From: a virus
Virus record (IMG/VR): IMGVR_UViG_3300037502_001683
Location: 6,252-70,251 of that record
DNA: 64,000 nucleotides
Reading direction: 5' to 3' (one strand)
The first letter of the stretch is position 1; the number at the start of each line of letters is the position of its first letter. The position numbers and the translations under genes were made by a program. Shown piece after piece: positions 6,858 to 64,000 of this stretch. The notes under the pieces were generated by a model. The model saw nothing but the letters and a program-made list of their open reading frames with translations. It made no database searches and was not told the origin of the DNA.

Positions 6858-7498
6858 ATCAGTCCGCGCTTTTTAGCTTCGTCCAATTCTTCCTGAGTCC
6901 ATTGCTGGGCATACCAGACTTCGGCGTCCCAAGGCAGTGGTCTCATGCGGTCAACCCCGAATGATAGGCGTCCGTAGCGGTCTGGACTATTCTCCTCCAG
7001 CTTCACAAACTTGTCCTCTGGCAGCATGTCCTTGTCATGTGGAAGGAATAGGTAGCCACGCAAGAAATCCAGAATGAAACTATGGCGGATAAGAAAGGCG
7101 GATTGGGCGCAAGCCATCCAAGGCGCGGCATCCATCTTGGCCCCGAATACCATCCCCTTGTCACCAAGATCTTGATACATGCGTTCTGGAACAGGCCCGA
7201 ACCACAGGCAATCAGCCTCTTTATAGATGAAGTCCTTCCCACAGTTGTAGGCAATCATGGCCAGCGCACAGATAGATGCCGACCATCCGCACAGCCCCTC
7301 GCGTCCTTCTTTGATTAGATCTCCCACATGTCCAACATTGTGGTTGCAAATGATTTGATTGGTTGTCGGAACACCTCTATCTGTTGAGATGATGTGGTAA
7401 TCATGGGTGTATTTTTCGGTGTTGACCCGCCAGATATCAAAGAAAGACCGATCCCAATCAGATCGGTAGTGATAGCCAGAACCAATGACGTAATTCAT
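6854..7498 (-). CDS. Putative GT-A fold glycosyltransferase
   Basis: FIYKEADCLW DxD-like motif; ATG at 7498 overlaps the upstream stop (ATGA); operon context. Confidence 0.6.
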   Translation of the reverse strand: MNYVIGSGYHYRSDWDRSFFDIWRVNTEKYTHDYHIISTDRGVPTTNQIICNHNVGHVGDLIKEGREGLCGWSASICALAMIAYNCGKDFIYKEADCLWFGPVPERMYQDLGDKGMVFGAKMDAAPWMACAQSAFLIRHSFILDFLRGYLFLPHDKDMLPEDKFVKLEENSPDRYGRLSFGVDRMRPLPWDAEVWYAQQWTQEELDEAKKRGLI

Positions 7499-8019
7499 TT
7501 TTCCAAAACTACTGTTGGCCATTCTTCATCTGTGACAAGGGTTTTTTTCCAACCGTTTACTTTTATCCATTCTTCAACAGCTTCTACTACTCCCCAATTG
7601 TGTTTTCGCGTAATCTCGTTCTCGCAGAAATCATGGAGCATAAGCATTCCGCACATTCTGGAATACCAAACAAGATCAAACCAAACGGCTTCAAAACTAT
7701 GGTTGGCGTCGATATAAACCCAATCAACATCCTGAAGAGCGTCCATAACGGCCTGAGATCCGCTCTCTTCGCGCAATATTATGGCGCGTGGATTGTTAGC
7801 AAATTTAGCGCAGACATTGCGGTATCTATGGTCTTGTCCACCCTGATTCACGTTGGCCGAATCATCGTAACCAGTTTCGTAGTGCTTCCAAGGGTCTACC
7901 AGATAAAGCTTTTTCACGGGAGTAGCGAGGATTTGCGCGGAGAACTCTCCCTCCAAAACGCCAATCTCAGCCCCGATAGTTCCTTCGGGTAGGCTTTCTA
8001 TGTGTTGGATGCGCGTCAT
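7495..8019 (-). CDS. Class I SAM methyltransferase (Methyltransf_24-like)
   Basis: GAEIGVLEG, LYLVDPW, VDWVYIDANHSFE and LHD motifs. Confidence 0.85.
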   Translation of the reverse strand: MTRIQHIESLPEGTIGAEIGVLEGEFSAQILATPVKKLYLVDPWKHYETGYDDSANVNQGGQDHRYRNVCAKFANNPRAIILREESGSQAVMDALQDVDWVYIDANHSFEAVWFDLVWYSRMCGMLMLHDFCENEITRKHNWGVVEAVEEWIKVNGWKKTLVTDEEWPTVVLEK

Positions 8020-8576
8020 TTCAGCCAGCTTCCTTCCCAAATATGGTAAGCCAAGGTGTTTTCTGTCGGTGGTTTCTTTGATTCGTGGTGGCCATAAGGA
8101 TAAAAAGTATCAGTGGGAAGCAAGGTAACGTCTGGTGTTAAATGCTCTTCCATAATGTAGCATCCCCAAGCCGCATCTTTTTTTCTCTGGTCGCCATAGT
8201 TTTCAAGCATGGCATTGATCCAAGAATGGGAGGGTTCCGCGCCCATGGCGGCATTGCAGATTACGCCGTCTGGCTGCCTAGCGGCAAATGCGCTATATTT
8301 TGCTAGTTCATCTATGGGTTTAACTGCTACAAAATCCAAATCGAAATAGACTCCTCCATATTTTTGTAGGGCTTTGAGGCGGATGATGTTGGAAGATCCA
8401 GCCTTGGTGGAGTGGGCATATTCATAGCAATCACAGAGCAAGATTTCCACTGACTCCTCATCCCATAGTTTAACCATCCAATCTGGATTCATTTCTTTCA
8501 TGGCTTTGTGTAGATCGGCCAAGTGAGGTGGCAATTCCCCACCAATCCATACTTGATGGATTATCTTCGGGATCAC
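8016..8576 (-). CDS. Glycosyltransferase family 32 (OCH1/DxD sugar-binding)
   Basis: IPKIIHQVW, RLKALQKYGGVYFDLD, YHIWEGSW; GTG start overlaps the upstream TGA. Confidence 0.9.
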   Translation of the reverse strand: MIPKIIHQVWIGGELPPHLADLHKAMKEMNPDWMVKLWDEESVEILLCDCYEYAHSTKAGSSNIIRLKALQKYGGVYFDLDFVAVKPIDELAKYSAFAARQPDGVICNAAMGAEPSHSWINAMLENYGDQRKKDAAWGCYIMEEHLTPDVTLLPTDTFYPYGHHESKKPPTENTLAYHIWEGSWLK

Positions 8577-9100
8577 TTCACTGCCTCCATAATAATGGTT
8601 TCGATTTTGTTGTTGTGGTCTCCGATGACTTTGCCATGCCACTCCAGTTCACTGAAGTCGCAGCCATATATCTTGTCAGGGTCAAACCCCGCAGCAAACA
8701 AACAGGCATCAAGGATTGATTCGTTCCACGCTGAGAGATGGCCATGATCCAGCAAGATAGAACGGACTGCCCCACGCTTTGTTCCGTCTCCGAATCCAGA
8801 TTGTCCGTGCCATTTGAGGTAGGCTCCGTCTGCCAGATCGTAGATCTTAGACGCGCTAGGAACCGCCACTCGCAATGTTCCCTCTGGTTTCAAGACTCGC
8901 AGGGCTTCCGCAAAAAACCGCACAGCATCAGGTGTTGTGGTGTGTTCGACAGTGTGAGATGTATAGATAAAATCTACAGAGTTTTCTTCAAATGGAAGCG
9001 GTTTTGTAATGTCTATCCGATTCGGAGGATCAAACATGATGTCCATGTTTCTCCATCCTTCTTTGATATCTCCTCCAGCGCCAAGGTTTAACTTAATCAT
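8573..9100 (-). CDS. Class I SAM methyltransferase (Methyltransf_11-like)
   Basis: KLNLGAG, DITKPLPF, SHTVEH, RVLKPEGTLRVAVP. Confidence 0.88.
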   Translation of the reverse strand: MIKLNLGAGGDIKEGWRNMDIMFDPPNRIDITKPLPFEENSVDFIYTSHTVEHTTTPDAVRFFAEALRVLKPEGTLRVAVPSASKIYDLADGAYLKWHGQSGFGDGTKRGAVRSILLDHGHLSAWNESILDACLFAAGFDPDKIYGCDFSELEWHGKVIGDHNNKIETIIMEAVK

Positions 9101-10410
9101 GTCAGTAGCATCTTGAATATTCTTTCATTCCATTTTGAGGCAGGACGATCCATGCAATCTGTCCAGCTTGATGGGTGTTCTTCATGGAAAAGGATTTTTT
9201 CATTCGGGATTTCAGCAGGATAGCGATCTTCGATCAGGTTGTCCATCGTGGAAACCCATCCAAATTGCCGCCTAATCCAAGCCGCTACCGCCAAGTCAAA
9301 CCAAGGGGAAGCCACAGCGCAGTCAGGAAAATTATAGATTCGGTCTGCCAGCCAATCCCAACGGAAGGCAAATAATTCCCTTCCGATGTGGGCAGGGTCA
9401 CGCCGCACCCCTATAGCCCCGAATTTGCGGCAATGCTCGACTACCTTATGGAGGTTGATGATTTGAACATCGTCATTAGTCCAGACAATGATATCCCGAC
9501 CACTTGTAAACTTCAGAGCCTTGGCCAGCACCTCCTTCAGCATAGGTAGAGGACGCCGATCCCCAATATTTTGAGCCGTACGAAGAATATTGTCCGCTGT
9601 CAGCATGTGGTCGAAGTGGGCTTTTTGGCTCTTAAAAGCCTCTCTATGGCGTTTTTCCTGCCCGAATCTATCCACAATCGCCCACACCTCACCCACTGGA
9701 AGCAGGGTTTTCTCCACCTCATCACAGATCTGGTCTATGTTATAGTCCCGATATCGGAAGGTGGAGGTAGCGGTAACTGGAGGTGGACTGCCTCGCCACC
9801 CCTCATTGATCAATGCAATCGTCGGACACTTGGCAGCATTGGCCAGCCAGAGGTGGAGGGTATCGATGGTTATTAGACAGGACGCCGCATCCAGAACACC
9901 CAATAAATCAAATGGCTTTTCTGCCTGTATTGTAGATAGGTCTACGATCTTGTAATCGGGGAACCTTGCCTTGAGACCGCGCATCAAGTTTTCGCTATTC
10001 GCGAATGGCGAACTTATCCCATGGGTTGCCACGGCAATGAATGGGCCTTCGGGAATTAACTTTTGTTCCCGTTCGGGATTACGCCGATCAAACACATAGG
10101 GAAACTTCCTCCAAAGATCCCGAAATCTTCCCAAGCGGTAACTTTCCAAGGCATAGTTCTTTTCTTGTTTTGTTTCTTTGGGATGCATGAAGACTTGTGC
10201 AACCCGTAGATCTGGCAATCCTTGGCAAAGACCGATGCAGTGATGGAGTTCTACAGGATCGCCGCTATACTTCTTGGTCTGGCAGTAGCTTGTCCCTTCA
10301 AAGATCGAAGCATATTTCTCTGCTGTGATAAATGTAGCTCCCTTGTTGGCGTAAGCTACGGGCAAGAGGTTGATATTGTCTCCGAGTCTCCCCAGATTCA
10401 GGATGGTCAT
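9097..10410 (-). CDS. Two-domain glycosyltransferase: GT9/heptosyltransferase-like N-terminus plus GT-A-like C-terminus
   Basis: GRLGDNI at the N-terminus and LITIDTLHLWLANA (GT9 DS/T-x-x-H/W-LA motif); second half has VWTNDDV and WFDL. Confidence 0.7.
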   Translation of the reverse strand: MTILNLGRLGDNINLLPVAYANKGATFITAEKYASIFEGTSYCQTKKYSGDPVELHHCIGLCQGLPDLRVAQVFMHPKETKQEKNYALESYRLGRFRDLWRKFPYVFDRRNPEREQKLIPEGPFIAVATHGISSPFANSENLMRGLKARFPDYKIVDLSTIQAEKPFDLLGVLDAASCLITIDTLHLWLANAAKCPTIALINEGWRGSPPPVTATSTFRYRDYNIDQICDEVEKTLLPVGEVWAIVDRFGQEKRHREAFKSQKAHFDHMLTADNILRTAQNIGDRRPLPMLKEVLAKALKFTSGRDIIVWTNDDVQIINLHKVVEHCRKFGAIGVRRDPAHIGRELFAFRWDWLADRIYNFPDCAVASPWFDLAVAAWIRRQFGWVSTMDNLIEDRYPAEIPNEKILFHEEHPSSWTDCMDRPASKWNERIFKMLLT

Positions 10411-11987
10411 AGCTTTTTGAGCGTATCCAAAAGAGGAAAGAGGTCAACCATGGAGGTGCGGCGTTTGATCTCCGCTTCCAGCATGGACTTGTATATACTA
10501 TGTATATCCAGATCAGCTATATCCTCACGGGATATACCACTGATTGCAGCCTCTGCATTATTATCCAACTGAGAAATAACCTTGGCTAGGGATGACGGGT
10601 TCCCTGCCTCGTAGTCGCTTTCCATGATGGTGGAGATGTCGCCGTCCGCCAACAAATCCCAATTGTAGGCTAACGCCGACTTCTTGCCACAGAGTAACAG
10701 ATGGGCTACCAACTGCTTCCAAGCCTCTCCCTTCTGCTCCCCGTAGCGGGTTTCGGTAGGAAGTGCCCGATGGCCTCCGCCCATGGCAGCTTGTTTCTTT
10801 AGCTGCGAGGGCTTGATGCCAAGCAGCTTCGCACAACGATTAGCTAACTCATCCCGCTCAATCCCATCTTCCAAGACAGACAGAGCTTGCCCAACCTTGC
10901 CCATGGCAATCTGTTTATCCTCAATTGAGTTTTTATCCAGCGATTCTGCCAGTGCTTCGGGATAGAGCTTTGCTTCTGATATCAGACTCGCAAGATCCCC
11001 GCCCGAAACCAAGAAAGAATCTGGATCTCCATCTAATAACATTACGGCTTTGACCCTTACTCCGAGACTAGCCAGCCCCGCAAATGCCTTGGAAGCGGCC
11101 TCCTTGCCCGCTTTATCCCCATCAAATACCAAGACAGCCTCCTCGCACAGACGGCGAATGGTGGCCCCGTGGGATGCGGTAAACCCTGTCCCAAGGGGAG
11201 CGATGGCATTGGTAATTCCTGAAAGGTGGCATCTGATCGTATCAATCTGTCCCTCGACAATGACCGCTTGCCCCGAATCAATGATGGATCGTTTGGCCTT
11301 GTCCAGTCCGTAGAGAAGCTTTCCCTTATGGAATATGGAGGATTCGGGAGAGTTGAGATACTTCGCAGGGTGGTTGTCGGTGGTTCTCCCGCTGAATCCG
11401 ACCAGCGTCCCCGACTCGTCCGCTATCCCGAACATAATCCGATTGGTAAAACGCAGTGTCCCGTTGTCGTAGGTTAGACCCGATAGGGTATGATGATTTG
11501 CACTACCAGACAGAGCATAGCTCTTGGGCGCGAATCCGATCTTCCATTCCTCGCAGATCTCCTTATTGAATCCCCGCTCTTTGAGGATCTTTCGGGCTTC
11601 GGCCCCTTCCTTGCTCAAAAGCAAACTGAAAAATTGTTGGTGGGCTTTATAGACTACCGATACCAAGCCCCTTCGTAGCTTATCGGCCTCGCTTTCCTGT
11701 TCCTCTATGGTTATCCCCGCTTTGGCCCCAAGCTTGCGGACAGCTTCGGGAAAATTGATCTTGTCCATCTCCATGACGAAACGAAAGACCGACCCACCAG
11801 CCCCGCAACCGAAACATTTATAGTTTCCTTTTTCATCATTGATAAAAAAAGAAGGAGTCCTCTCCCGATGGAAGGGACAAAGCGCAACGAATCGTCCGCC
11901 CCTCTTTTTCACAGGAAAGTAATCTCCTGCTACTTCAGAGAGACGGACGTTCGCCGCTATCGAAGCAATGGTGGAGTCAGAGATCAA
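10407..11987 (-). CDS. dnaG: DNA primase, bacterial DnaG type
   Basis: CPFH...CFGC zinc finger, KYLNSPES, TOPRIM VEGQID and FDGDKAG. Confidence 0.97.
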   Translation of the reverse strand: MISDSTIASIAANVRLSEVAGDYFPVKKRGGRFVALCPFHRERTPSFFINDEKGNYKCFGCGAGGSVFRFVMEMDKINFPEAVRKLGAKAGITIEEQESEADKLRRGLVSVVYKAHQQFFSLLLSKEGAEARKILKERGFNKEICEEWKIGFAPKSYALSGSANHHTLSGLTYDNGTLRFTNRIMFGIADESGTLVGFSGRTTDNHPAKYLNSPESSIFHKGKLLYGLDKAKRSIIDSGQAVIVEGQIDTIRCHLSGITNAIAPLGTGFTASHGATIRRLCEEAVLVFDGDKAGKEAASKAFAGLASLGVRVKAVMLLDGDPDSFLVSGGDLASLISEAKLYPEALAESLDKNSIEDKQIAMGKVGQALSVLEDGIERDELANRCAKLLGIKPSQLKKQAAMGGGHRALPTETRYGEQKGEAWKQLVAHLLLCGKKSALAYNWDLLADGDISTIMESDYEAGNPSSLAKVISQLDNNAEAAISGISREDIADLDIHSIYKSMLEAEIKRRTSMVDLFPLLDTLKKL

Positions 11988-14913
11988 AAACTAAACGGAT
12001 TAGGACTTGATGGCATATCTTCCACGCGAGGCAGGACATGGACTGTCCCGTCCCGCTTTGGTTTGCGCGGTACTTCGATGGCAGTCACCACAAACAAAAA
12101 CGAAGTGACGGCTACTATCAGTGCGAGGAATGCATAGGGTTTCATTTCTTTCCGTGCTTTCTGGTTTCTTGAATATTATTGATGATTAGTGTTGAGAATG
12201 ACCACGTTGCAATGGCAACGAATGTTCCAATGACTACGAAGGAGAGGATCATACCAAACATAGATCCTCCTGATCGTAGAGTTCTCCAAGATCGCGGAAG
12301 TGTTCCAAGATCTTGCCCATCAACTCGTTGGATATAACATCTTCGATGTCGATGAAGAAGCGGCGTTCCAGTTTGCGGCATTCGGCCACACTCATGGTCA
12401 ATTCAATGTTATTTGAATCGTTCCATACTGTGACCCTTCCCCTGCAACGCCTTTCGGCATTGAGGCCAGCTTTGGTTATGTGGTGGTGGATCATTGGTCC
12501 TTCCCGTGCCATTGAAGCGGGGCAAGTTCATCAACAGCCATGCTGTAAATCACTTCCCTTTGACGCTCACTCAAAGGATTGCCGACATTGACTGAGTTCC
12601 TCAGTATGGTGATGGCGCTCCTGACATTGGCGATAAGGATGTTGTTTTTGCCGAAATCCTCACTCTGTGGAATTTTTGTTTTCATGGTCAGCAAACAATC
12701 AGGAGGTTATTCTTCATCCAATCTTTGCTGATTCCTTTTTCAGCAAGACGATGAGTGATAGCTTTCTTGATTTGCTTTTCGCGCTGCGAAGCGCCCGACT
12801 TTTTACTTTTTGGTTTCTGTTTCATGGTTGTGTTTGTTGGATAGCCAGTTGTCTAACTGGCGGTAGGCTACCAGACGTTGCATCCAGTTTGCTTGATTAG
12901 TGAACTGAATGCCTCGTGCCAGTAGCGAAGGTTGTTGTTTCGGGCCGCGAACCTTGAGCATGATGTCATGCCACAGGTCGCAGACAAATCTTACTTGTTC
13001 TTTAGACATAGGAATCCTCCTGACGTTGGCATTCGTCGCGGATGGTTGACAGGTCTTCCACGCATGGGCGACATCCGAGATGGACACAGGCATCCAATAC
13101 CTGTGCGTCCCCGAATTCTTGACACAAGAAATAAAGCGGTTTGGATTGATAGGTTTTTCCATCCAGCTTGATTCCGCCCCAAAATTCGTAGTGGTCATTG
13201 CCACAGGCATCAGTCCACATTTTGCACCTCCGTTGCTTTGATCATTCGGTAGGCTTTGATGGCATCACGCACATCATCTTTTCTCCAGTTTTTGCAAGCT
13301 GGAAGAATTGACTTGTTTCTGTTTTTGTATCCGTAGCGGATCGCTCGCCTTAGAACAATGTCCAGCAGAGTTAAGTTGGCTATGGTTGGTTTGAACTTCT
13401 GTATTTTGGTTTTCATGGTGGTATTTGATTAGACTATGTGTTAGGGGTTTTGTTCAATGAAATCTTCATGGTCGATCCACGATTTTCCTGCCGAAGAAGG
13501 GGAGAGGCCCGCGCCCGAAGCAGACAAGCCTTGGGTTCCCCCCCCTCTCACCAATGCAGAGAAGCAAGCACTGAAGTTTGCCATGATTCGGAACCGCCCC
13601 GATAGGAAAGGACGGGGAGCCAGACGGCGAGCGGGGGAAAAGAAATGGGCAACAAAAGGCAAATAGTTTTTCATGCGGTTCTCCAGAAGCGGAGTTTTTT
13701 CTTTCCGCCCTCTGTCACCATCCTTGTAGGATAGCGTTTCCCGTGGCGGCGACCTTCCTTTGAAGCGAGCGAGCGAAGAAAATTCCAGTTGGTTTTTAAT
13801 CCAGTTTCAGGCCAAGCAAAGGACTCTCCGACTTCCAGTTTTGAGAGCATGAAGGGGAGAGGATGGACGAGCGGCCCTCTCTCCCCCTTACGGGGGAGGA
13901 GGACCTTATCGTCAATGACTATGGTATAGCTTCGCTTCACAGGCTATCCACAATCTTTTGGAACCAGTTTTTCGGTAGTTCGTAGGCAACCCCGTCAACA
14001 ATCATTGACTGATTGTGCATGGGCCTAGCCCAACCCCCGCCGAAGTAATAGAGTCCAGCAGGAATAAACCTCATTGGTTTTTCTCCTCCAAGACTCCCCT
14101 TTATTTGTTTTGCTTTTACTTGTGCTGTCATAATCTTATTCTCTAAACCATTCGGCCCGCGCCATTTCGTAATCCTCCGCGACATCCAGACCGATGAAGC
14201 GGCAATTATCCTCCGCGAAGGTGCGGATTTCCTCGTCCAGTGCGTCCTCAATAGCCTTGGTTAGCTCTGGATGGCCCTCTACGACGATTTTCTCGTATTG
14301 TCTGCCCTCCGTAGTCCACGGCAGATATTTCCCCTCGTCTGCTTCGATTTCGCACTTTGTCACCTCTATGCCTTGGACATCGACATCCCCATCAAACTCG
14401 ACGTTGACTTCCGCATCGACGTAATAGGTTTTGTCTCCGACTGAGATTTCATTACTGAATCCGACTTTGTATCCGCATGTATGGGTTTTCATTTGTTTTA
14501 TTGTGGGTTGGGTTCCAGATCCCCGAAGACGGCGCGGAGATCCTGCTCGACAGCTTCAAGCTTGCGTTTGAATTCCGCGAACATTTCATTCTGGTTTTCG
14601 TAGCCAATTTCCTTGGCAGACTCCCCCTTCAAGCGGTCACAAACGTCGAAGTAGACCTCTTGGAGGTGGGTGATGGTGGATTGATGGATGGTCTTCACAG
14701 TGTCTTTCCTTTCGATGGGGCTTGAGTGACGATAGCCTTGCAGGCGGATCGTGCCGCCGCTTCGACTCTGTCGATAGTTTCCTGTGATACTCTGGAAAAC
14801 TTATGGGCGCGATTAGCCTCTGCGAATTCCAGAATGTATTTTTTTACTTTGGATTTGTTGATTAGTGCGTTCATGGTGTGGTTTTTTATTTGGTTTTTGT
14901 TTAGTCGATCCAC
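11984..14913 (-). other. Run of about 12 short, tightly packed early/middle hypothetical genes (e.g. 11984-12145 membrane peptide, 12491-12685, 13210-13416, 13671-13940, 14136-14492, 14498-14698)
   Basis: Abutting or ATGA-overlapping minus-strand ORFs with A/C-rich leaders; several begin MKT. Confidence 0.7.
13429..13457 (-). promoter_or_regulatory. TGAAC-N17-GTC class (ECF/sigmaE-like) promoter
   Basis: Minus strand reads TTGAAC-17 nt-GTCTAA, 12 nt before the ATG at 13416. Confidence 0.7.
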
Positions 14914-18712: not shown

Positions 18713-18955
18713 ATGGGAAACACCACACACACCACCACGGGCAAGGAACCTCGCAATCGGGTTGCCTTGCGTTTGATTCAATCGGCGGCTGATGCTCTCG
18801 TGACCTACGAGAATTGCGCGGGACTATCGAAAGCCGATGCATGTTGGAGCGGTCTAAAACGCTGCAAAGAGGATCTTGCAGCCATGGGCGGAAACATGCC
18901 AGACCACGAGACGTTGCGCCTTATCGGACGCTACAACGGGGACGGAGAGATTTAG
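18713..18955 (+). CDS. Small stand-alone hypothetical protein
   Basis: Has its own promoter and terminator; start moved to MGNTTH. Confidence 0.65.
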   Translation: MGNTTHTTTGKEPRNRVALRLIQSAADALVTYENCAGLSKADACWSGLKRCKEDLAAMGGNMPDHETLRLIGRYNGDGEI

Positions 18956-28460: not shown

Positions 28461-28534
28461 CGCGGGAACAAGCCTTGGTAGGCTAACCAGTTTCATAAGC
28501 TGGGGCAATGTGAGTTCAATTCTCACTCCCGCTA
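28461..28534 (+). tRNA. Atypical tRNA with CAT anticodon (Met/fMet-like or Ile2)
   Basis: Acceptor CGCGGGA/TCCCGCT, D arm AGCC-TTGGTA-GGCT, anticodon arm CCAGT-TTCATAA-GCTGG, T arm GTGAG-TTCAATT-CTCAC, discriminator A, no encoded CCA. Confidence 0.85.
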
Positions 28535-28561
28535 CCTTTGCAAAGGTTCCACCTCAATGAC

Positions 28562-30169: not shown

Positions 30170-30299
30170 ATAGACACCACTTCTTGCTCTGTGTTCAAAT
30201 TATTCGATGGACGCAAGATTGTGAGATCCATGGGATTTAAGCACAGTGTTCCACGATTGTCAAAAAAAGTTTGAACATCCGCCAAACCGTGTGGTCTAT
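30170..30299. promoter_or_regulatory. Divergent pair of TGAAC-N17-GTC promoters
   Basis: Minus 30170-30198 and plus 30271-30299 both read TTTGAACA-N16-GTCTATTA. Confidence 0.8.
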
Positions 30300-30305
30300 T
30301 ACTCT

Positions 30306-30690
30306 ATGAACAACTTTGCGGGATGCATTGAGGGTGCCACTGTGAATACGGGGGCAAGCGACCTGAAATCCCGCAATTCCGAACGTTTCGATGCGCGTCT
30401 TCATGGCGCGGGAATAAACGATGAGGAAAATGCTGGGCGGTATAGCAATACGGATGAGCGCCACATCGGGAGACAGAGGTTCGGCCTTAGTCTGCGAACG
30501 GTGGGTGCCACATCGTGGTCGGGAGATAGTAAGGTTTATTGGCCCGTGTCGGCCCCTTATAATACGGCACCCCACTGCTATCGCAACCATGGAAACCCGT
30601 ATATCGGAAAGGGGATGCATACCCGTTCCCAGCAAATCTTTTTTGGAGGCGGGGAGACCCGCATGCAAATGCGAAGCTTTGCCAATCTGG
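30306..30690 (+). ncRNA. Candidate large (~380 nt) structured ncRNA
   Basis: Own promoter; many stems, two GNRA-capped hairpins and long-range pairings (see findings). Confidence 0.6.
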
Positions 30691-32533: not shown

Positions 32534-33513
32534 ATGATCACTTGGAACGATTACAACGATACAAAGCCCGATACAGAGGGAATCTATCTTATCAAAAACG
32601 ACGAGTCAAATCCTCCTTTAAAGTGGGCTTGTTATTACCATCCCCACCATGGATGGAGCGGGATTGGACATATCCTTGAACGTGTGATTAAGTATTGGAG
32701 TCCATGGCCCGATTCAAAGTAGTATTGACTGTCATCAATGAAGACTCCGTCACTCCATTCGTGGTTGGCCCACGCTTTCGCAGGGCGGGGAGGATGCCAA
32801 TGGAGCATCTGGCAGCAGAGCGAAGCGGCTATTGGTTCGACCCTGTTAAAGAGCTTGATCTCGCGCAAGAATGCGCCGATCAATTCACCAAATACATCAA
32901 AGATGCAGAAGCAAAGAAAAAGAAAAAATGAACGATAAAACCAAAACATTCATTGTGTCCCACGGAGAAAAAGTTGTCGAACTCCATGGATTCGGGCTTT
33001 CCCATGAGGAAGCGACATTGCAGTCTGATCAGCTAACAAGGGCTGGCAAACGCAACGTTCGCATCCGCTTGGAAGACCCCATCCACCCAAGCTGGCCGCT
33101 CAACTTCGACGCACAATGAGTAACGATTGGAAACAAGATTGTGTACAGGGTGATGATGGTGTTTGGATTTTTTGGCCCACAGAAAATACTGGAGCCTATC
33201 CAGCACACTTACTACGCACTATCGCGGATTACATTGACAAACTAAACGCCGAAAACGACAAATGAACGACACGCCCGAAACAGATAAAGAGTGGGGCAAC
33301 TGGCTTCACAAATTAAAAATGCCCATTGAATCGTTTGTGGATTTTGCTCGCAAGCTGGAACGTGAACGGAATGAAGCCTTGGACTCATTAAAGTTTATCG
33401 CTGAGTGGGGCGGAAAAACACATGAAACGGAATGCGGCGATATCCGTTGTGATGGAGGCTGGTGCGCCGAACAAGCCCGTTCCGCAATTTATTTACTGAA
33501 AGAAAACCAATGA
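32534..33513 (+). other. Five small hypothetical genes
   Basis: Coupled ORFs, including 33262-33513 of the DTPETD/LERER family. Confidence 0.65.
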
Positions 33514-35917: not shown

Positions 35918-36503
35918 ACTTCCAGCAGAAATCGGGGAATTCCAGATTTTCTCCACCTTGAACCTCAACGGGTAGGTGGACGCTGACGGAATTAAAACAG
36001 CCACATATACCACAAGCCTTGAGTTGCATGTCGTAGGAAGTCTTTCTTGCTCCCGCGATGTGTGGGAGCATCCCAGCAATCCCCTTGCACCCCCAACAAC
36101 CAGAGGTGGCGATTTGATGTGGGCAGGCCGCACAAATCTTGGCTCGGCGTTCGGCTTCTTCTTGGGAGACAAGCTCAAACTTTCCGTTGACCGCAAACTG
36201 ATACATTGCCCGAACCCAACGGACAATCTCGGCAAATCCCAACTTTTGTTTGGCTTGGGTGCAAGGAACACAGTTTGGATTTCCAGCTAGTCGGTCACAA
36301 AGATTGTGTTCTATTTGTGACACAAAATCTACAGGAGGAGTAATTCCTTTGGAGACCAGAAGCTTCTCGCAATTCCCGACCATGTCCCAGAAGTCTCCTC
36401 CATATACTTCTTCGTTGACTATTGGGCACTTGACGATCCACCCTTTCGGCGGGACATCAGTCTTGCGCGGATAACAAAATTTCGGAGCCTCACTCATTGA
36501 CAA
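35895..36503 (-). CDS. Cys-rich putative metal-binding protein (DUF6171-related)
   Basis: AERRAKICAACP, CWGC, CGICGC, P..CW. Confidence 0.65.
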   Translation of the reverse strand: MSMSEAPKFCYPRKTDVPPKGWIVKCPIVNEEVYGGDFWDMVGNCEKLLVSKGITPPVDFVSQIEHNLCDRLAGNPNCVPCTQAKQKLGFAEIVRWVRAMYQFAVNGKFELVSQEEAERRAKICAACPHQIATSGCWGCKGIAGMLPHIAGARKTSYDMQLKACGICGCFNSVSVHLPVEVQGGENLEFPDFCWKSKQSQSE

Positions 36504-37260
36504 CTAGCTCCGCTTCATAGGTTGAATCATCTGGAATCTTCATGGATTCCAGCTTGGTGGCGATATTAATCTGAATGGCATTCTGTTGGTTTACGCCTTC
36601 AGAAAAGTTGATGGCAGCAGCTTCGGCAAGTTGCTTAATATTTCTCATCATCCCAAGAGCCTCCATGCCGTCTAGGTCTTGCGCGGCATCAGCAGCCTTG
36701 ACCAACACCTTACCAGTCAGAAACTTGATAGATTTTTTCATGGTCTCCAATGAAGCCGTAATTTCCGACATCAAAGTTGGAACCCCGTCATCCTCCCAAG
36801 GGGCGGGGGATTGCTCGTTAACCAGACGCTCTCGGCATTGAATCCAACGCTGGGTATCGCGCCACAGGCAGACGGTAGACTCGCTAACTTTCAGTTCGTC
36901 AGCAATGTCCCGAATCGTTCGACCAGAACAATACATGGAGAACCCCTTAATGCATTCAAGCCTGCGCTTCTTGTCCATCTCTTCCATCTTGGCGGGAGGC
37001 GGAACCAAGGCTACAGGCTTCTCGACATCCCAAGGATAGAGGTTTTCTTTTTCGGGATTTTCCTGCCAGATCTTCACATGGTCATCCCACTTTTCGCTAT
37101 AGATCAGCTTTTCAAGTGTGGGTTTGTGTTTGGTGTCCAAGGCTTTCATCACCTCTGGCATGTTTCGACCAGCGGCATACAACCGAAATGCATTCTGTTT
37201 TTTGAGGCGGTTTTCGGGACTATCCCAATCCCGTTCTGCAACCTTGCGCTTTTTCTCCAT
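36490..37260 (-). CDS. Probable terminase small subunit with tandem HTH
   Basis: Two AF.LY..G/GF.MY..G HTH repeats each ending in PW[DE]; coiled-coil C-half; 28 nt from terL. Confidence 0.55.
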   Translation of the reverse strand: MEKKRKVAERDWDSPENRLKKQNAFRLYAAGRNMPEVMKALDTKHKPTLEKLIYSEKWDDHVKIWQENPEKENLYPWDVEKPVALVPPPAKMEEMDKKRRLECIKGFSMYCSGRTIRDIADELKVSESTVCLWRDTQRWIQCRERLVNEQSPAPWEDDGVPTLMSEITASLETMKKSIKFLTGKVLVKAADAAQDLDGMEALGMMRNIKQLAEAAAINFSEGVNQQNAIQINIATKLESMKIPDDSTYEAELVVNE

Positions 37261-53776: not shown

Positions 53777-54260
53777 ATGGCCTCTCACGACAAGAGACTC
53801 CAAGAGGTGTTGGACAAGCTGGCCAAAGAGCTTGTGGAATACTTTGATTCGGGGTTTGTTGTGGCCACGTTCCAAGATGGCGGGGAAACCAAGAACGCTT
53901 TTCTCAAATTCGGCAACGACTACGCCATCGAAGGCATTGTCTCCAACATCCACGATATCCTCTACGGACAGGACGAGGAAGACGATGATGACGATTTGGA
54001 TGACGGGGATTTAAAAAAAGTAATCAAGGACTCTTGATATGGCAAATGGATCACTCTCGTTCGGCTTACCCGAAGAACAGGTTGAATTTGAGCAGGCAGT
54101 TAAAGCGGGTGACATGTATAGCGTTCTTGTTGAGCTTGATAGCGAGCTACGCAATCATCTCAAGCACAATTCTCATCCTGATTGGGATAACGCTACTGTT
54201 GAAGAAATTCGCAAGATTTTGAACGAATTGATGACCGATCGGTCTATTCATTTCAACTAA
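53777..54260 (+). other. Two small hypothetical genes (53777-54037, 54039-54260)
   Basis: Consecutive ORFs; the second has the F.LPEE..EF..A phage pattern. Confidence 0.7.
54219..54247 (+). promoter_or_regulatory. TGAAC-N17-GTC class promoter
   Basis: TTGAAC-17 nt-GTCTAT, upstream of the ATG at 54284. Confidence 0.7.
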
Positions 54261-54283
54261 ACCATACCAACCACACACAAACT

Positions 54284-54889
54284 ATGACCACACTCTATCT
54301 ATGTGGGCCGATGCGCGGCTTGCCACAACTCAATCATCCAGCCTTCTTTGAGGCTGAAGAAGCCTTGAAAGCAAAGGGCTACAACGTTATTAATCCCGCA
54401 AGAATGGATCAAGAGCTTGGGCTAGACCCCCACAACTCTCAAATGGACGGGAAGTTCATAGAGGATGCCGCCCGAAGAGACATCGATGCAGTCTTTGAGT
54501 GCGATGAGCTAGTCCTCCTTCCGAAGTGGGAAAAATCAAAAGGAGCAAGGGCCGAAATCGCCGTAGCCCAATGGTTGAGCAAAACCATCCGCCTCTATCC
54601 GACCATGGTCAAAATAGAAAAAGAAGATGTCTGTGATGTCGCAAAACGGTTGACATCCTATGACCGTCAGCTAGATTATGGTAGTCCAATTGAAGACTTT
54701 ACCAAGCAGGCGCGGATGTGGAGTGTTATCTTGAATACGAACGTGACCCCGCAACAGATTGCCATGTGTATGATCGCCGTGAAACTTTGCCGCCTTACCA
54801 ACTCGCCCCGCCATCGCGATTCCGCTATTGATGTGGTTGGATATGCGCGGTGTTTAGATCTCTGTAACCAAGCAACATCCTCTCTATGA
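54284..54889 (+). CDS. Fusion of DUF4406 (nucleoside deoxyribosyltransferase-like) and DUF6378 (MazG-like) domains
   Basis: YLCGPMRG...N.PAF...NPA...WEKSKGARAE, then R..DYGSP..DF...A.MWS...K..R...DS..D..GYA. Confidence 0.85.
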   Translation: MTTLYLCGPMRGLPQLNHPAFFEAEEALKAKGYNVINPARMDQELGLDPHNSQMDGKFIEDAARRDIDAVFECDELVLLPKWEKSKGARAEIAVAQWLSKTIRLYPTMVKIEKEDVCDVAKRLTSYDRQLDYGSPIEDFTKQARMWSVILNTNVTPQQIAMCMIAVKLCRLTNSPRHRDSAIDVVGYARCLDLCNQATSSL

Positions 54890-58886: not shown

Positions 58887-61265
58887 TTAAGCAAATATCG
58901 AAGCGTCGAGGCTTATGGCACGAATTAAAAACCACCCAAATTTATAAGGTTCTGTTGAAGAACTAATAAGATAAGTTCCAGATGTTGGTATTGAAGAGGT
59001 TCCTTCAGATTTTGGCACGGTAAAATTGGCATCGGCTGATATTTCATGTTCAAGTGTTTTGTTTATATCTGGCCCAACAAGAGGGATTTGTTGATTATTA
59101 AGTGTTAATGTTATTGTAGTGTAGCTTAAATTGATATTAAGTCCGCTGGCTGAAAGCGTTTTTGAGGGTGATCCAGATATGGTTATTCCTTTATTCAAAC
59201 ACGGAGGAATGTTTACCGAAACTGGAATTAGTCTTTTTGATGATTCTGTTTGATCTCCTTTTGTTGGTATGTATCCAAACCCAGCAGGGGTGTCATTGAT
59301 TTGAATAGCCCTAGAAATTGTTGCCTGTATCGATTTTGTTTCAGAAACTCCATAAACGGTTGTGGAAAAACTAACTAATTTAAAATTTGGCCAGCTTGCA
59401 GAAGCGCCAACCTTTAATCTTATTTGGTCTTCATTAAGTTGATCTTTTTTTAGAAAAAACAAGTGACCTTTTGCTGGTAAATTTTTTCCCCATTTATCTT
59501 TAAAAGATATTTCAAACTTTGGAACGAGGGTTAGCGACGAAGAAACATATCCCTTGTCTTCTTGGGTCAAGGATTTGAATTGCCCATCTAATCCACTAGA
59601 ATCAAATTCTTGAATGGCTTCAGACTTTTCTTCCTGCCATTCAATAGAAATTTTGTCCAATTCTCTTGGCAATTCCAAGTCTATAGAAGTTGGATATGTT
59701 ATATTAAAAGAAGAAAGTGTAGAATCTAGTTCTTTTTTATCGTACTCTCTTACAAGATTATTTCTGTCATCAAGCCCCTCGACTTCATAATTATCTCCAT
59801 TTGGAATTGATGATGAAATATATTCTTTGTAGGGAATTTGTATTCCCCAATTTTCCTCAAGTCTTTGATTGTTTGTTTCATTAAAAATATCTTCTCTTTC
59901 GACTATTGTTTTTTGAACTGTAAACTCTGTAAGCCTTTGTTCTGTTTTGGAAAGCTGGCTTCCAGAAAGCTCTTGATCTTCAACATTTGTTTTTTCAACA
60001 ATCTCTTCGATTCTTTTTACAGGAGTATTAACCCTGAACTTTTCTGGTATGGTGTCGGGTTTTGATACCGAAAGTGTTTTGTTGTCAAACACCTTTGGAA
60101 CTTCTGTCTTTCTCACCACATAATTCCCGTCACCCAAGGCTTCAGACTCCATGGTCTTGGTTGCTGTCGGGGTTTCGGTGGTATCACCAGATTGAAGTGT
60201 TTCGGTGATGGTTACCACCTGTTTCTCGTTGTTTGTAGATTTTTGGGTAAGTGACTTCGGAAGCGATTGCACTCTCTTTGTCAAAGAGGTTCTCTTGGTG
60301 AATTCGGTCAACTGCTGCTCGGATTTTGCAAGCTCTCCAGTATTCAAGGTAGCGGGCATCGCGGCATCGCCTTCCAAGGTTTTTTGTTCGGTCTCGGCGG
60401 GAACAAGAACCCTAAACTTTTCTGGTATGGAGTCGGGCCTTTCTTTTGAAAATGTCTTTCCATCAAATACCTTTGGTGTATCCACAATCCTCTCGATCAA
60501 GGATTCAGCGTCTTCGCGGGAAACTTCAACAGTTCTGGTTGCGGTGAGCTTGGGGGGATTGTATCCAGCGGCCCCCTTGCGCTGAGTGGTGACGGTTAAA
60601 CGTTGTCCCTCGTTGTTGGTGGAAAATCCCTGTAGTAGGGGTCCAGCAACCCCGTAGGTCTGAACCACTTTGACCGAAAGAAATTCATTGTAGGGTTCGT
60701 AGGAGGTTTGGGTGATGACCCCGTTGACATTCGTAAGGGAACCGATCTCTTCACCTGTGGGGACAAATAACTGGCGGCGTTCTTGGACGGGACCACGGGA
60801 CGCATCATAAAAATCCCGATCCCGAATAGGAAAAAGAGAATTGCCATCATCGTCGGTCTTGATCGACCAAGACTCTTCAATTTCGGTATAGACAATGGCA
60901 GAGCCTTCGCGGGCCTCGTAGGTAACTCGTTTGTCGGCGGCTAGGCTGGCTACCTGTCCTTCGTTTTTGACGGAGCGGCGTCTACCCTGAATTGGGCCTA
61001 GATCATCATCGTAGCGGGTAAACGGCACCCAAGGAGAAGGAAGAATCTCGTAGATGTGGGTAACAATCTGATCTCCAGAGGAAGGCTGGGCACCCGTGAA
61101 AACGTGGTTGGGGTAGCGTTTGGAATCTGGGTGGGGGCTGAGATCTTCGGGAATCCTGTAGCCAGCAACGCGAGGATCTTTTTTAATCCCGATGACGGGG
61201 AAGTCGCGGTCATTTGCCGCATAGGAGACAACGTAGAACTTGTCAAAAGGAGGATAGGAGGCCAT
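58887..61265 (-). CDS. Large Thr-rich beta-strand tail/structural protein with an internal repeat
   Basis: Start reassigned to MASYPP; PKVFD.KT.S...PD.IPEKFRV..P...L.K.EQ.LTEFT occurs twice. Confidence 0.75.
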   Translation of the reverse strand: MASYPPFDKFYVVSYAANDRDFPVIGIKKDPRVAGYRIPEDLSPHPDSKRYPNHVFTGAQPSSGDQIVTHIYEILPSPWVPFTRYDDDLGPIQGRRRSVKNEGQVASLAADKRVTYEAREGSAIVYTEIEESWSIKTDDDGNSLFPIRDRDFYDASRGPVQERRQLFVPTGEEIGSLTNVNGVITQTSYEPYNEFLSVKVVQTYGVAGPLLQGFSTNNEGQRLTVTTQRKGAAGYNPPKLTATRTVEVSREDAESLIERIVDTPKVFDGKTFSKERPDSIPEKFRVLVPAETEQKTLEGDAAMPATLNTGELAKSEQQLTEFTKRTSLTKRVQSLPKSLTQKSTNNEKQVVTITETLQSGDTTETPTATKTMESEALGDGNYVVRKTEVPKVFDNKTLSVSKPDTIPEKFRVNTPVKRIEEIVEKTNVEDQELSGSQLSKTEQRLTEFTVQKTIVEREDIFNETNNQRLEENWGIQIPYKEYISSSIPNGDNYEVEGLDDRNNLVREYDKKELDSTLSSFNITYPTSIDLELPRELDKISIEWQEEKSEAIQEFDSSGLDGQFKSLTQEDKGYVSSSLTLVPKFEISFKDKWGKNLPAKGHLFFLKKDQLNEDQIRLKVGASASWPNFKLVSFSTTVYGVSETKSIQATISRAIQINDTPAGFGYIPTKGDQTESSKRLIPVSVNIPPCLNKGITISGSPSKTLSASGLNINLSYTTITLTLNNQQIPLVGPDINKTLEHEISADANFTVPKSEGTSSIPTSGTYLISSSTEPYKFGWFLIRAISLDASIFA

Positions 61266-61276
61266 TTGGTCACGAA

Positions 61277-61346
61277 AACTTACCCTAAAAAAGGTTGAGC
61301 GGCAAGATGATTTTCCGCTTGCATAGATTATCTCTTGTGCTAGATT
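61277..61346. promoter_or_regulatory. Divergent sigma70-like promoters (tail operon leftward, sRNA rightward)
   Basis: Minus TTGCCG-17-TAAGTT, 11 nt before ATG 61265; plus TTGCAT-16-TAGATT with a TG extension (61319-61346). Confidence 0.6.
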
Positions 61347-61351
61347 CCCAA

Positions 61352-61426
61352 CTTGGAAGGCACTCGTCTTCCTGTTTTCATGTGTGTGGGGCGGGGTCGG
61401 GCTAAAAACTCGGCCCCGCTTTTTTT
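61352..61426 (+). ncRNA. Candidate ~75-nt small RNA: 5' hairpin, single-stranded UGUUUUCAUGUGUGUGG, intrinsic terminator
   Basis: GGAAGGC-ACTC-GTCTTCC hairpin; GCGGGGTCGGG-CTAAAAA-CTCGGCCCCGC-T7 terminator with no plus-strand gene upstream to terminate. Confidence 0.7.
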
Positions 61427-61473
61427 GAACGCTTGACAAGTTGGGTTGTCGGATATAACGAACATCTACCTAT

Positions 61474-62100
61474 ATGGCATATCAATCCAACCAACCCAAA
61501 GCACCAGTCCTCTCACATTTCACGCTCGCGAAAAACGGGCCAAAGCTTGTAGTCATCAAATCAGCCCCCAAATGGGTGAAGAACAACTCGTTGTGCGTTA
61601 TCGAATTAATCGTTGATGGCGTAGCTCATGTGTATTTCACTGAGAACAAGGACATTGCGTCGAAGTTCCAGCAGTATGTGGGCAAGTCCGTAGTGCTGAT
61701 TGCCTCTGGCAATTCCAAGCAAAAGACCGATTCCATGGAGATTCAGCCTGCTGGGGTTCCCGCTTCCAGCCTGCCTGCCGCCCAGAGTACCCCGCAAGTA
61801 GCCCAGAAAGCCCCACAAAGCGTTGTAGAGGCCGCAAAGACTCCAGAGCGCGAAGCCAAGAGATTCCTCTGTCAGGCGGCAAATCTGATGCGTCTGTGCG
61901 TCAAGAAGGCCAACGACATTGCGGTGGAATTGAACTTGCCCGAACAGCACCGTCAGGGTATAGCTACAACATTGTTTATTCAAGCTGATAGACAGGGCCA
62001 CATTCCCGCCATGCCGATTGATCCTTACAAGCCAGAGCAACTGGGCTTCGGGGCAAGCAAGGCTGAATCCCTCAAAAACCCCGAACCAAACAATGACTGA
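61474..62100 (+). CDS. Hypothetical protein, possibly ssDNA-binding/recombination
   Basis: Beta-rich N-domain, Pro/Ala/Gln linker, ATTLFIQ helix; near the Cas4-like nuclease. Confidence 0.6.
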   Translation: MAYQSNQPKAPVLSHFTLAKNGPKLVVIKSAPKWVKNNSLCVIELIVDGVAHVYFTENKDIASKFQQYVGKSVVLIASGNSKQKTDSMEIQPAGVPASSLPAAQSTPQVAQKAPQSVVEAAKTPEREAKRFLCQAANLMRLCVKKANDIAVELNLPEQHRQGIATTLFIQADRQGHIPAMPIDPYKPEQLGFGASKAESLKNPEPNND

Positions 62101-62353
62101 CGATGGAAAGCGCGGCATCGAAATTTTGTCGCATGATAAGGGATCATTCCTCGTTCAAAGTCGGTCTAATCGCGAAGACTACTACATGGTGGAATTCACT
62201 ACCGATGAAGTCGGAGACATCACAGGATGCTCCTGCACTTGTTCAGGCTATCACTTCCGCAAAGAATGCTTCCACATCCGCTACCTCTGTAAACTCTTGG
62301 GCGTCGAAACGCCGAAGCCAACCAACAACAACCAACTAGAAATAGCAGCATAA
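62093..62353 (+). CDS. SWIM zinc-finger protein
   Basis: V.S.S...YY.V, CSCTC..Y.FR..C.HI. Confidence 0.8.
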   Translation: MTDDGKRGIEILSHDKGSFLVQSRSNREDYYMVEFTTDEVGDITGCSCTCSGYHFRKECFHIRYLCKLLGVETPKPTNNNQLEIAA

Positions 62354-62357
62354 TACT

Positions 62358-62700
62358 ATGGCTAAAGATAAAAACTGGATTGCGGGAGCAATCAAAAAAG
62401 AAGGCGCTCTTCGTAAAACGATGGGCACCAAAAAAGGTAAAACTATCCCGAAGGGCAAGCTGGAGGCAGCGGCCAAGAAGAGTGGCAAAACTGGTCAACG
62501 TGCGCGTTTAGCCATGACACTTGGAAAACTCCGCAAGAAATAATATGAAGAAATCCAAAGCAGAAAAGAAGATCAGCAAGACGATGCGTGAATTCAAAGC
62601 TGGAAAGCTTAAAAGCAGTTCTGGCGCTAAAGTCACCAATCCCAAACAGGCGATTGCTATCAGTCTTTCAAAAGCTGGTAAGAGTAAAAAGAAACGCTAG
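62358..62700 (+). other. Two very basic small proteins (62358-62543; 62545-62700, DUF6496-like)
   Basis: NWI.GAIK..GALR...RARLA.TL; K.MREFK.GKL.S.SG..VTN.KQAIAI.LS.A. Confidence 0.75.
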
Positions 62701-63793: not shown

Positions 63794-64000
63794 ATGAGCA
63801 AATCAAATAGAACACAGTCAACGCTGAAACGTCTTGGACTTTCTGGCGTCAATAAACCGAAGCGAACCCCATTCCATCCAACCAAGAGTCATGTTGTGTT
63901 GGCCAAAGAAGGAGATAAAACCAAAGTCATTCGTTTTGGTCAGCAGGGGGTTAGTGGATCTCCCAAGAAAGAAGGGGAATCGGCGTCCTATCGCAAGCGC
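63794..64000 (+). CDS. Conserved basic phage protein, 3' end outside the window
   Basis: NKPKRTP.HPTKSHVVLAKEGD..K.IRFGQQG. Confidence 0.75.
   Translation, partial: MSKSNRTQSTLKRLGLSGVNKPKRTPFHPTKSHVVLAKEGDKTKVIRFGQQGVSGSPKKEGESASYRKR

Follow-up and report, generated by a model that had tools for sequence, protein, structure and literature searches.

A predicted small RNA unit between two diverging genes

The stretch of DNA analysed here, hereafter the window, comprises 64,000 nucleotides (nt; bases 6252-70251) of the 70,251-bp virus record IMGVR_UViG_3300037502_001683, which is classed as complete; positions below are those of the window unless a contig is named. Two genes, for proteins of 792 and 208 amino acids (aa), diverge from a gap of 208 bp, and this gap holds what appears to be a separate transcription unit for a small RNA (sRNA). 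From its 5' side the unit consists of a promoter-like element, called P1 below, a 7-bp hairpin, an exposed linker and a strong intrinsic terminator (Table 1). All of these parts were found where the initial annotation, made from the letters of the window, had placed them when it proposed a stand-alone sRNA. No plus-strand gene lies upstream of the unit, its neighbour on that side being a divergent minus-strand open reading frame (ORF), and the minus-strand genes nearby do not overlap it on the other strand.

Table 1. Features of the sRNA locus and of the candidate target gene, in window coordinates
Feature	Position	Strand	Basis or remark
792-aa ORF	start 61265	-	nearest gene on one side of the sRNA unit
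Promoter-like element of the divergent 792-aa gene: TTGCCG (61305-61300), 17 nt, TAAGTT (61282-61277)	61277-61305	-	predicted from sequence
sRNA promoter P1: TTGCAT (61319-61324), 16-nt spacer ending in TGc (TG 61338-61339, extended -10), TAGATT (61341-61346)	61319-61346	+	sequence and conservation
5' hairpin GGAAGGC/GTCTTCC, 7 bp, 4-nt loop	61355-61372	+	fold and covariation
Exposed linker UGUUUUCAUGUGUGUGG (= TGTTTTCATGTGTGTGG)	61373-61389	+	sequence and fold
Single-stranded U/G-rich linker UGUUUUCAUGUGUGUGGG, putative seed	61373-61390	+	conservation and unpaired probability
Intrinsic terminator: 11-bp G+C-rich stem (61391-61419), 7-nt loop, U7 (61420-61426)	61391-61426	+	fold and covariation
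TTGAAC-N17-GTC promoter-like element of the 208-aa gene	61425-61450	+	genome-wide motif class; predicted
208-aa ORF	start 61474	+	nearest gene downstream of the sRNA unit
Leader and start of the DUF4406+DUF6378 gene (CCACACACA at 54271-54279, ATG 54284)	54259-54295	+	Pfam; predicted duplex -15.9 kcal/mol

The 86 nt from 61345 to 61430 fold with a predicted energy of -35.3 kcal/mol, as against -23.7 ± 2.9 kcal/mol for shuffled sequences (z = -4.0; none of 200 shuffles was as stable). The linker, 15 of its 17 bases being G or U, remains unpaired in the centroid of this fold, and a generic scan calls both hairpins terminator-like. The 5' hairpin begins about 8 nt past the -10 hexamer, that is, at or near the predicted 5' end of the RNA. 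A generic promoter scan of the window left P1 unflagged, because its -35 hexamer matches at only three of six positions; the call is based on the extended -10 and on conservation. Three matches to the pattern of the P1 class occur in the window, where 1.4 are expected, and P1 is the only good site among them. Judged by its sequence, the sRNA promoter is of housekeeping type, differs from the main promoter-like class of this phage (see below) and is essentially unique in the window, which would fit early transcription by unmodified host polymerase. No -10-like pause element is seen in the window sequence after the predicted start. A search for sequencing runs that contain 60300-62700 gave no RNA run, and the aligned matches from four runs were contigs of relatives, two of these runs being probably DNA.

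Conservation and stem covariation in related phages

Relatives were retrieved with the 208-aa protein, as 66 viral contigs with 47-94% identity to it, so that 67 loci were available with the window included; since the loci were fetched in this way, adjacency of the unit to the 208-aa gene is partly a matter of ascertainment. In 65 of the 66 contigs the sRNA unit precedes the homolog of the 208-aa gene, and L059 alone is devoid of it. A pattern running from the promoter to the TTGAAC element of the 208-aa gene pulled the unit from 64 of the 67 loci, which gave 49 unique sequences. The motif TTGCA-N15-19-TAnn[ACT][TA] is present in 64 of 67 loci, and the conserved form of the promoter among the relatives is TTGCA-N16/17-TGnTAnnTT.

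RNAalifold returned only five pairs from a plain MAFFT alignment of all clades, because the stems are out of register in it, and that alignment was replaced by one based on a covariance model built from 26 sequences of clade A. The model matched 47 of the 55 sources searched. It recovered the units of L040 and L036, the latter lying 660 nt further upstream. Among the eight unmatched sources, two (L077 and L081) were not expected to hold the unit, five (L043, L044, L055, L062 and L063) are rearranged or divergent and have a unit visible by eye, and L059 shows nothing. In the model-fitted alignment 98.0% of cells are paired, as against 84.7 ± 0.6% after shuffling, and none of 500 shuffles reached any of the measures; when the partners are slid by one to three columns, pairing falls to 50-63%. 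Changes on both sides were found in 17 of the 18 pairs of the two stems. In the 5' hairpin this holds for six of seven pairs (94.8% of cells paired), and compensatory swaps, such as GGAAGG/CTTCC to GAGGG/CCCTC and others, can be seen by eye. In the terminator stem it holds for all 11 pairs (99.8% of cells paired); at least five unrelated terminator sequences occur among the relatives, and a T run follows the stem in all clades. The 5' hairpin is missing or rearranged in some distant clades (L037-L045). Some caution is called for here, as the alignment was fitted to the very structure under test and a few of its distant rows are doubtful; the covariation effect as read from these sequences is nevertheless large and visible by eye.

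Within clade A (26 sequences), identity reaches 100% in TTGCA, 83% in the TGn and -10 element, 96% in the first stem, 91% in the linker, 99% in the terminator stem and 83% in the terminator loop, in contrast to 45% in the promoter spacer and 52% in the 8 nt before the hairpin. Part of this contrast may come from a mosaic boundary beside the variable 792-aa gene.

The linker core, U..UCAUGUGU, is near-constant among the 49 unique sequences (T37 and T39 are invariant, and T29, T32, C33, A34, T35, G36 and G38 are kept in at least 90%), and it is held while the flanking protein drops to 47% identity. The mean probability that the linker is unpaired is about 0.8 in clade A and 0.46-0.81 in the other clades. 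As far as the alignments tell, the U-rich/CAU/(UG)n stretch is the only part of the RNA that is conserved at the level of sequence. The suggestion that syntenic regions of relatives would combine covarying stems with an invariant linker was thus borne out for the stems and for the linker core, not for invariance: GUUUUCAU is present in just 46 of the 67 loci, TCATGTGT in 50, and (TG)n with at least three repeats in 59, the number of TG copies ranging from two to six among relatives. Even in near-identical relatives CAU is replaced by AAU (UAAUG, in L004) or interrupted as CAAU (CAAUG, in L003 and L028), each time with an extra UG repeat, so that complementarity to the start codon AUG is broken while the UG tract is kept or lengthened. 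The conserved feature of the linker is, on this comparison, its U/G-rich tract. A TG insertion at 61380, seen in two contigs of one metagenome run, is a slippage-like change of length inside the putative seed (61380-61389).

L003 (2103-2867) and L026 carry, immediately before P1, an inserted gene with an HNH-endonuclease motif (HIDHIRP...NLQPL); in L036 (2343-2927) such a gene follows the terminator directly, and one is also present in L059, where no sRNA was detected. As these insertions flank the sRNA unit on either side and none falls inside it, the unit behaves as a module. Each genome carries a single copy. The window has no Rfam family match at gathering score, and a scan of viral contigs for GTTTTCATGTGTGT gave mostly chance matches, only two of the 80 among the matches listed holding the element, both on known contigs. 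The conserved promoter, the covarying stems, the terminator and the linker core support a stand-alone unit, and on this comparative evidence we consider it highly probable that a real, structured RNA is encoded here and that it represents a new sRNA family.

Promoter-like elements and genes around the unit

The promoter-like element that follows the terminator and precedes the 208-aa gene belongs to a motif class that is widespread in this genome. TGAAC-N16-18-GTC occurs at 17 sites in the window, as against 5.5 ± 2.2 expected (a number that none of 100 shuffles attained), always on the strand of the local genes. For ten of the 13 sites with an N17 spacer an ATG follows at a distance of 9-39 nt, so that mRNA leaders would be very short, many of only a few nt. 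Further examples of TTGAAC-N17-GTC(TA) are found at 13456, 22507, 25217 and 30197 on the minus strand, and at 30272, 34577 and 54220 on the plus strand. From its distribution the motif looks like the main promoter class of the phage, and it resembles promoters of extracytoplasmic function (ECF) sigma factors (GAAC, about 17 nt, GTC). When the HNH gene parts the 208-aa gene from the sRNA in L036, TTGAAC remains with the 208-aa gene. A 256-aa ORF (36490-37260, minus strand) has a weak, below-cut-off match to Sigma70_r4_2 (15 bits, E = 0.0016), and sigma-70 region 2 has no match anywhere in the genome; by its sequence, this ORF is a candidate for a phage sigma-like factor that would recognize TTGAAC-N17-GTC.

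In clade C (L046-L064), about 30 nt upstream of the hairpin, TTGAAC-N17-GTCTGA overlaps the sigma-70-like promoter of the sRNA (by eye), and the RNA of this clade might be made from two promoter types. An inverted repeat, GACAA-N6-TTGTC, lies between the terminator and the 208-aa gene at 61436-61451 and has the form GACA-N8-TGTC in clade C; this conserved sequence has an operator-like appearance. The promoter-like element of the 792-aa gene stands back-to-back with P1, and both its hexamers are conserved in relatives. Its -10 hexamer is only 11 nt away from the ATG (7 nt in L010), so the mRNA of the 792-aa gene would be leaderless or nearly so.

Neither of the two neighbouring proteins matched any Pfam or PHROG family. 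The 208-aa protein is also without a relative among PDB sequences and without an informative atlas match, and its candidacy as an RNA-binding partner was dropped, as the Pfam, PHROG, PDB-sequence and atlas searches were all uninformative. No relative of it was found in bacterial and archaeal genome contigs, which therefore offer no clue to the host; the source lineage is one of uncultured freshwater, wastewater and subsurface phages. A search of the phage record collection with the DNA of 60900-62100 gave no match. After the 208-aa gene, the plus-strand unit continues with a DUF6496 protein and a PD-(D/E)XK exonuclease, and then across the record ends to an ORF of 2728 aa (4922-13108 in G000; in the window up to 6857, plus strand), which has no Pfam family and only a marginal PHROG match. 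Most large ORFs of this phage are without a family. The direct terminal repeat of the record (127 bp, at 63874-64000) sits within an ORF that runs across the record ends; the repeat is thus an overlap left by assembly, and the genome is circular or permuted without a physical end there. The genome has a G+C content of 48% and one gene for tRNA-Met (anticodon CAT; 28461-28536, plus strand).

Complementarity of the linker to start codons

The initial annotation regarded the linker as antisense to start codons of the AUG-AAA-AC type, which begin proteins with Met-Lys-Thr (MKT), and listed eight minus-strand starts with AUGAAAAC; these exist as described. GTTTTCAT occurs nine times in the window, always on the plus strand, as against 3.96 ± 2.03 expected (one of 100 shuffles reached nine), and its eight occurrences outside the linker mark the first or nearly first ATG of minus-strand MKT ORFs of 62-289 aa. 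The predicted pairing of the linker is stronger with start regions of the window genome than with gene interiors (Mann-Whitney p = 4e-4). Seven start regions reach -14 kcal/mol or lower, where shuffled linkers give 3.0 ± 1.9 (p = 0.05); the mean of the five best duplexes is -17.0 as against -14.4 ± 1.0 (p = 0.017), and eight of the 15 best start regions cluster at 13.4-18.1 kb.

The relatives lend no support to a regulon defined by such starts. They have between none and three MKT starts, with one to three called MKT genes in G001-G003, which have an identical linker, and three in G004, the linker of which is without GUUUUCAU. An excess and strand bias of ATGAAAAC do recur, with 6/0 sites on the two strands in G006, 5/0 in G007 and 0/4 in G008, as against 0-1 in controls. 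This pattern follows the orientation of the small-gene block and a general preference for Lys, the commonest second residue. The linker of G007 has GUUAUCAU, yet its genome carries five ATGAAAAC sites. An apparent compensatory case in this genome, in which the GUUAUCAU linker is accompanied by a AUGAUAAC gene, fails because the ortholog in a GUUUUCAU genome encodes Met-Ile-Thr (MIT) as well. The idea that the antisense of the linker represents a 'super-consensus' start region was also discarded, as it scores at about the median of real start regions. With GUUUUCAU patchy, CAU broken in variants and MKT counts independent of the linker, the start-codon regulon proposed for this RNA could not be upheld.

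C/A-rich leaders and the DUF4406/DUF6378 gene

The genes of this phage lack Shine-Dalgarno (SD) sequences, as had been remarked from the window: an SD-like motif precedes 11 of 66 long ORFs, against a background of 12%. Upstream regions of the genes are A/C-rich and G-poor. Taken together, these features indicate that the host probably initiates translation without SD pairing. The C/A-rich CCACACACA, complementary to the linker, is found exactly at the two places reported before, 54271-54279 (4 nt before the ATG at 54284) and 18723-18731, and also at 26960 (plus strand) and 43568 (minus strand). With at most one mismatch it has 13 sites, as against 9.9 ± 3.2 expected, and is not enriched. A 15-mer linker complement has three matches at up to three mismatches, itself included, where 1.9 are expected, with no other near match, and no other long complement of the linker was found in the phage genome. 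Two candidates were rejected. The perfect 10-nt complement ACACATGAAA at 33418 falls within a reading frame (K-T-H-E-T), and chance alone would yield about one match of this kind. The non-self duplex of lowest energy (-25.5 kcal/mol, at 30404) relies on the G run of the terminator and on a start that is uncertain.

The leader at 54271 proved to be the most consistently predicted target. It belongs to a gene (54284-54889) with the Pfam domains DUF4406 and DUF6378. ORFs of 11 genomes were put into ortholog groups, and the groups were ranked by the predicted duplex with the linker of each genome itself. Among the 49 groups present in at least five genomes, DUF4406/DUF6378 has a mean percentile of 0.016, the next group having 0.205. 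It ranks 4/107, 3/98, 1/103, 2/104, 1/85, 1/28 and 3/49 in the seven genomes that have the gene, with linker-shuffle p values of 0.01-0.09; two of these orthologs were missed by the ORF caller and are included in the ranking. In G005 the predicted duplex is a near-perfect 17-mer across the start codon (-22.7 kcal/mol). The 76 loci compared give 45 unique variants of the leader, of which 44 are rich in C and A with hardly any G; the exception, L309, is a distant homolog with GGAGG and no detectable RNA. For all 31 unique pairs of sRNA and leader the predicted stability exceeds the average over shuffled leaders (-16.9 as against -13.2 kcal/mol). It is thus a defensible statement that, amid C/A-rich leaders, that of DUF4406/DUF6378 is the most consistent predicted phage partner of the exposed U/G-rich stretch.

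Proposed mode of action

The explanation that we prefer would involve base pairing. We infer that host-type RNA polymerase would start transcription at the extended -10 promoter P1 and release the transcript at the intrinsic terminator, which would give an independently transcribed, phage-encoded RNA of roughly 72-76 nt, its 5' end probably shielded by the 5' hairpin. The exposed U-rich/CAU/(UG)n stretch between the hairpins would most likely serve as a base-pairing seed for C/A-rich 5' regions of SD-less mRNAs, and we infer that such pairing would hinder ribosome loading, in the manner of GcvB at C/A-rich enhancers. Among the mRNAs of the phage itself, that of the DUF4406/DUF6378 gene, in its leader and start (ATG 54284), would be the best candidate target; other C/A-rich phage leaders and host mRNAs may be further ones. 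Action through the U/G-rich seed on C/A-rich 5' regions is a model that we favour tentatively, and it may well prove wrong.

Several observations weigh against the pairing model. In the window genome, mean pairing of start regions with the native linker equals that with composition-matched shuffled linkers (-8.70 as against -8.40 ± 0.48). In the test of each genome with its own linker, the five best duplexes are significant in only four of 11 genomes, and in two of these four (G001 and G008) the result is overstated owing to a spurious ORF that lies antisense to the RNA; gene starts in all pairing tests come from a crude ORF caller. The DUF4406/DUF6378 candidate was chosen after the fact from the 49 groups, and only six of the 31 pairs of sRNA and leader have an individual p of 0.05 or less. 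Linkers from other genomes pair with DUF4406 leaders as well as the cognate ones do, which leaves no co-variation of RNA and target, and the leader drifts freely among close relatives while the seed is constant, a behaviour that fits selection for composition rather than for pairing. Finally, G004 has only a truncated copy of the gene, and none was detected in the clade-C contigs G006-G008, of which G007 and G008 span more than 9 kb upstream of the RNA. As these genomes keep the RNA without an intact gene, DUF4406/DUF6378 cannot be its sole target.

Alternative explanations

A different role would be played by the U-rich/(UG)n stretch if it were the site of an RNA-binding protein, with the RNA engaged in titration, recruitment or stabilisation and mRNA pairing being incidental. 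The lack of RNA-target co-variation and the persistence of the RNA in genomes without its best candidate target would be readily understood in this way, and so would the fact that composition and repeat number (two to six UG copies) are conserved with no fixed long sequence; the terminator stem and loop of clade A (99% and 83% identical) are also unusually constant. In such a case the invariant UCAUGUGU motif would define the site. Known sponges, however, carry many sites, whereas this RNA offers a single short one; no candidate protein was identified, the 208-aa neighbour having neither a family nor a solved relative nor an informative atlas match, and the tract has its natural complement in the leaders of the phage's own genes. 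We therefore deem protein binding unlikely, while taking it seriously. The unit might instead be the promoter-proximal, terminated leader of the downstream operon (208-aa, DUF6496 and exonuclease genes onward), similar to the lambda PR'-tR' 6S region; a factor that binds the linker or alters the polymerase would then drive read-through of the terminator. The geometry would suit such an arrangement: the first gene of a long plus-strand unit comes 47 nt after the terminator of a short transcript that has a strong promoter, and some distant clades show, by eye, no evident sigma-70-like promoter between terminator and gene. The unit also adjoins the 208-aa gene in nearly all loci, an adjacency that owes something to how they were fetched. 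On the other hand, the downstream gene has a conserved predicted promoter of its own, of the enriched, strand-matched and start-proximal TTGAAC class, which stays with the gene when the HNH gene intervenes, and P1 is of a distinct type; these features argue against the unit as a mere operon leader. Neither is a -10-like pause element present after the start, and only 52% identity is retained in the 8 nt on the 5' side of the hairpin, so the alternative pairing of the window fold is not conserved. The same pairing, the sole alternative in that fold, is all that could be found for an attenuator or riboswitch, for which no dedicated search of all clades was made. A terminated leader is, in our estimation, improbable.

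Covering of the start codon and first codons (AUGAAAAC) of SD-less or near-leaderless phage mRNAs, with a block of initiation, would explain why every one of the eight ATGAAAAC sites marks a gene start, always on the opposite strand from the RNA, why their excess and strand bias recur in three relatives and why the best start regions cluster in one part of the genome. With leaders of a few nt, nothing but the start codon would be available for pairing, and the native linker does have more strong matches in the window genome than its shuffles. This form of the pairing hypothesis is at odds with the loci that are without GUUUUCAU, with the loss or interruption of CAU in L004, L003 and L028, with the G007 genome, which keeps its ATGAAAAC genes beside a GUUAUCAU linker (the ortholog of its AUGAUAAC gene begins with MIT even where the linker has GUUUUCAU), and with the low MKT counts of genomes sharing the linker. 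Lys is a frequent second residue anyway, the 8-bp A/U-rich duplex would be weak, and the tests on single genomes are mostly not significant, all of which makes such a regulon hard to believe. Least of all do we expect that no RNA function exists, and that the locus is an element at the level of DNA, made up of divergent promoters with a terminator for insulation and a (TG)n tract prone to slippage, or else the beginning of a short ORF on the minus strand (MKTGRRVPSKLGI). The copy number of (TG)n does vary like that of a microsatellite, in metagenome contigs too, and on the minus strand the sequence is CACACACATGAAAAC, similar to a start region and with a score close to the median of real ones. 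Compensatory changes in two stems nevertheless argue for structure in RNA, and the core UCAUGUGU is conserved beyond the repeat. The minus-strand ORF encodes 13 aa in the window, as against 31 aa in G001 and G008, and the peptides agree in MKT only; it crosses a hairpin whose length changes by at least 2 nt, and no promoter is evident on its strand. As the peptide is basic rather than hydrophobic and shares only MKT with its counterparts, a type I toxin-antitoxin pair was rejected as well. A plus-strand peptide from the ATG at 61380 was likewise dismissed: its frame is shifted by 2-nt (TG) indels in close relatives, and the terminator in its path changes by compensatory substitutions.

If the pairing model is right and the U/G seed does pair with C/A-rich leaders, it would show RNA-based control of translation where no SD sequence exists to be masked, and would provide a handle on regulation and timing in a phage group with almost no annotated genes. 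A broader version can be imagined, in which an early RNA, made by host polymerase, acts as an 'anti-leader' in a host that initiates without SD sequences and throttles C/A-rich or near-leaderless mRNAs of the phage, the host or a competitor. U4-CAU-(UG)n would then be complementary to a leader rich in C and A, to the AUG after it and to an A-rich first codon, and this logic would take the place of the anti-SD one usual among sRNAs. Such a role is speculative, and we think it unlikely that it will hold.

Comparison with known systems

Lambda 6S RNA is the PR'-tR' leader of Q antitermination. The phage unit described here is similar in being a short promoter-proximal transcript, as predicted, with a strong terminator just upstream of an operon. 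It differs in that a promoter-like element follows the terminator, a mobile gene can part the two, and no pause element or Q-like factor was identified. Lambda OOP, P22 Sar, P1 C4 and P4 CI are short phage RNAs with their own promoter and an intrinsic terminator, which base-pair with phage mRNAs; they are cis-antisense or immunity RNAs that overlap the target operon or are processed from it. A dedicated promoter and an intrinsic terminator are predicted for our short unit as well; in contrast to those RNAs, it overlaps no gene on the opposite strand, and its candidate targets are kilobases away.

GcvB (RF00022), about 200 nt long, has a single-stranded G/U-rich stretch between hairpins, followed by an intrinsic terminator, and C/A-rich partners; the same arrangement is seen here, with the partners predicted. 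The phage RNA, with a predicted length of about 75 nt, has no match to it in sequence or structure, GcvB being absent from the six weak Rfam matches at E <= 10; it is also phage-encoded, and the host is probably a non-SD one. By analogy, then, the likeness is one of mechanism only and not of family membership, GcvB having been described as pairing with CA-rich translational enhancers (PMC7534054).

Trans-acting sRNAs encoded by prophages and phages have been reviewed (PMC12197685), and a phage sRNA that acts on host replication was reported (bioRxiv 10.1101/2024.10.31.621285). As they are presented in these sources, such RNAs are phage-borne, end at a terminator and pair in trans with host or phage mRNAs, features that are predicted for the RNA studied here. 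Few of them have been characterised, all from cultured phages of enterobacteria and vibrios and with known targets, whereas our RNA comes from uncultured freshwater, wastewater and subsurface phages. Its comparative signature is unusually clean, in that the stems covary and the seed is fixed over several clades and more than 60 contigs; on these grounds we place it beside the known trans-acting RNAs as a new family of phage-encoded, terminator-ended sRNAs.

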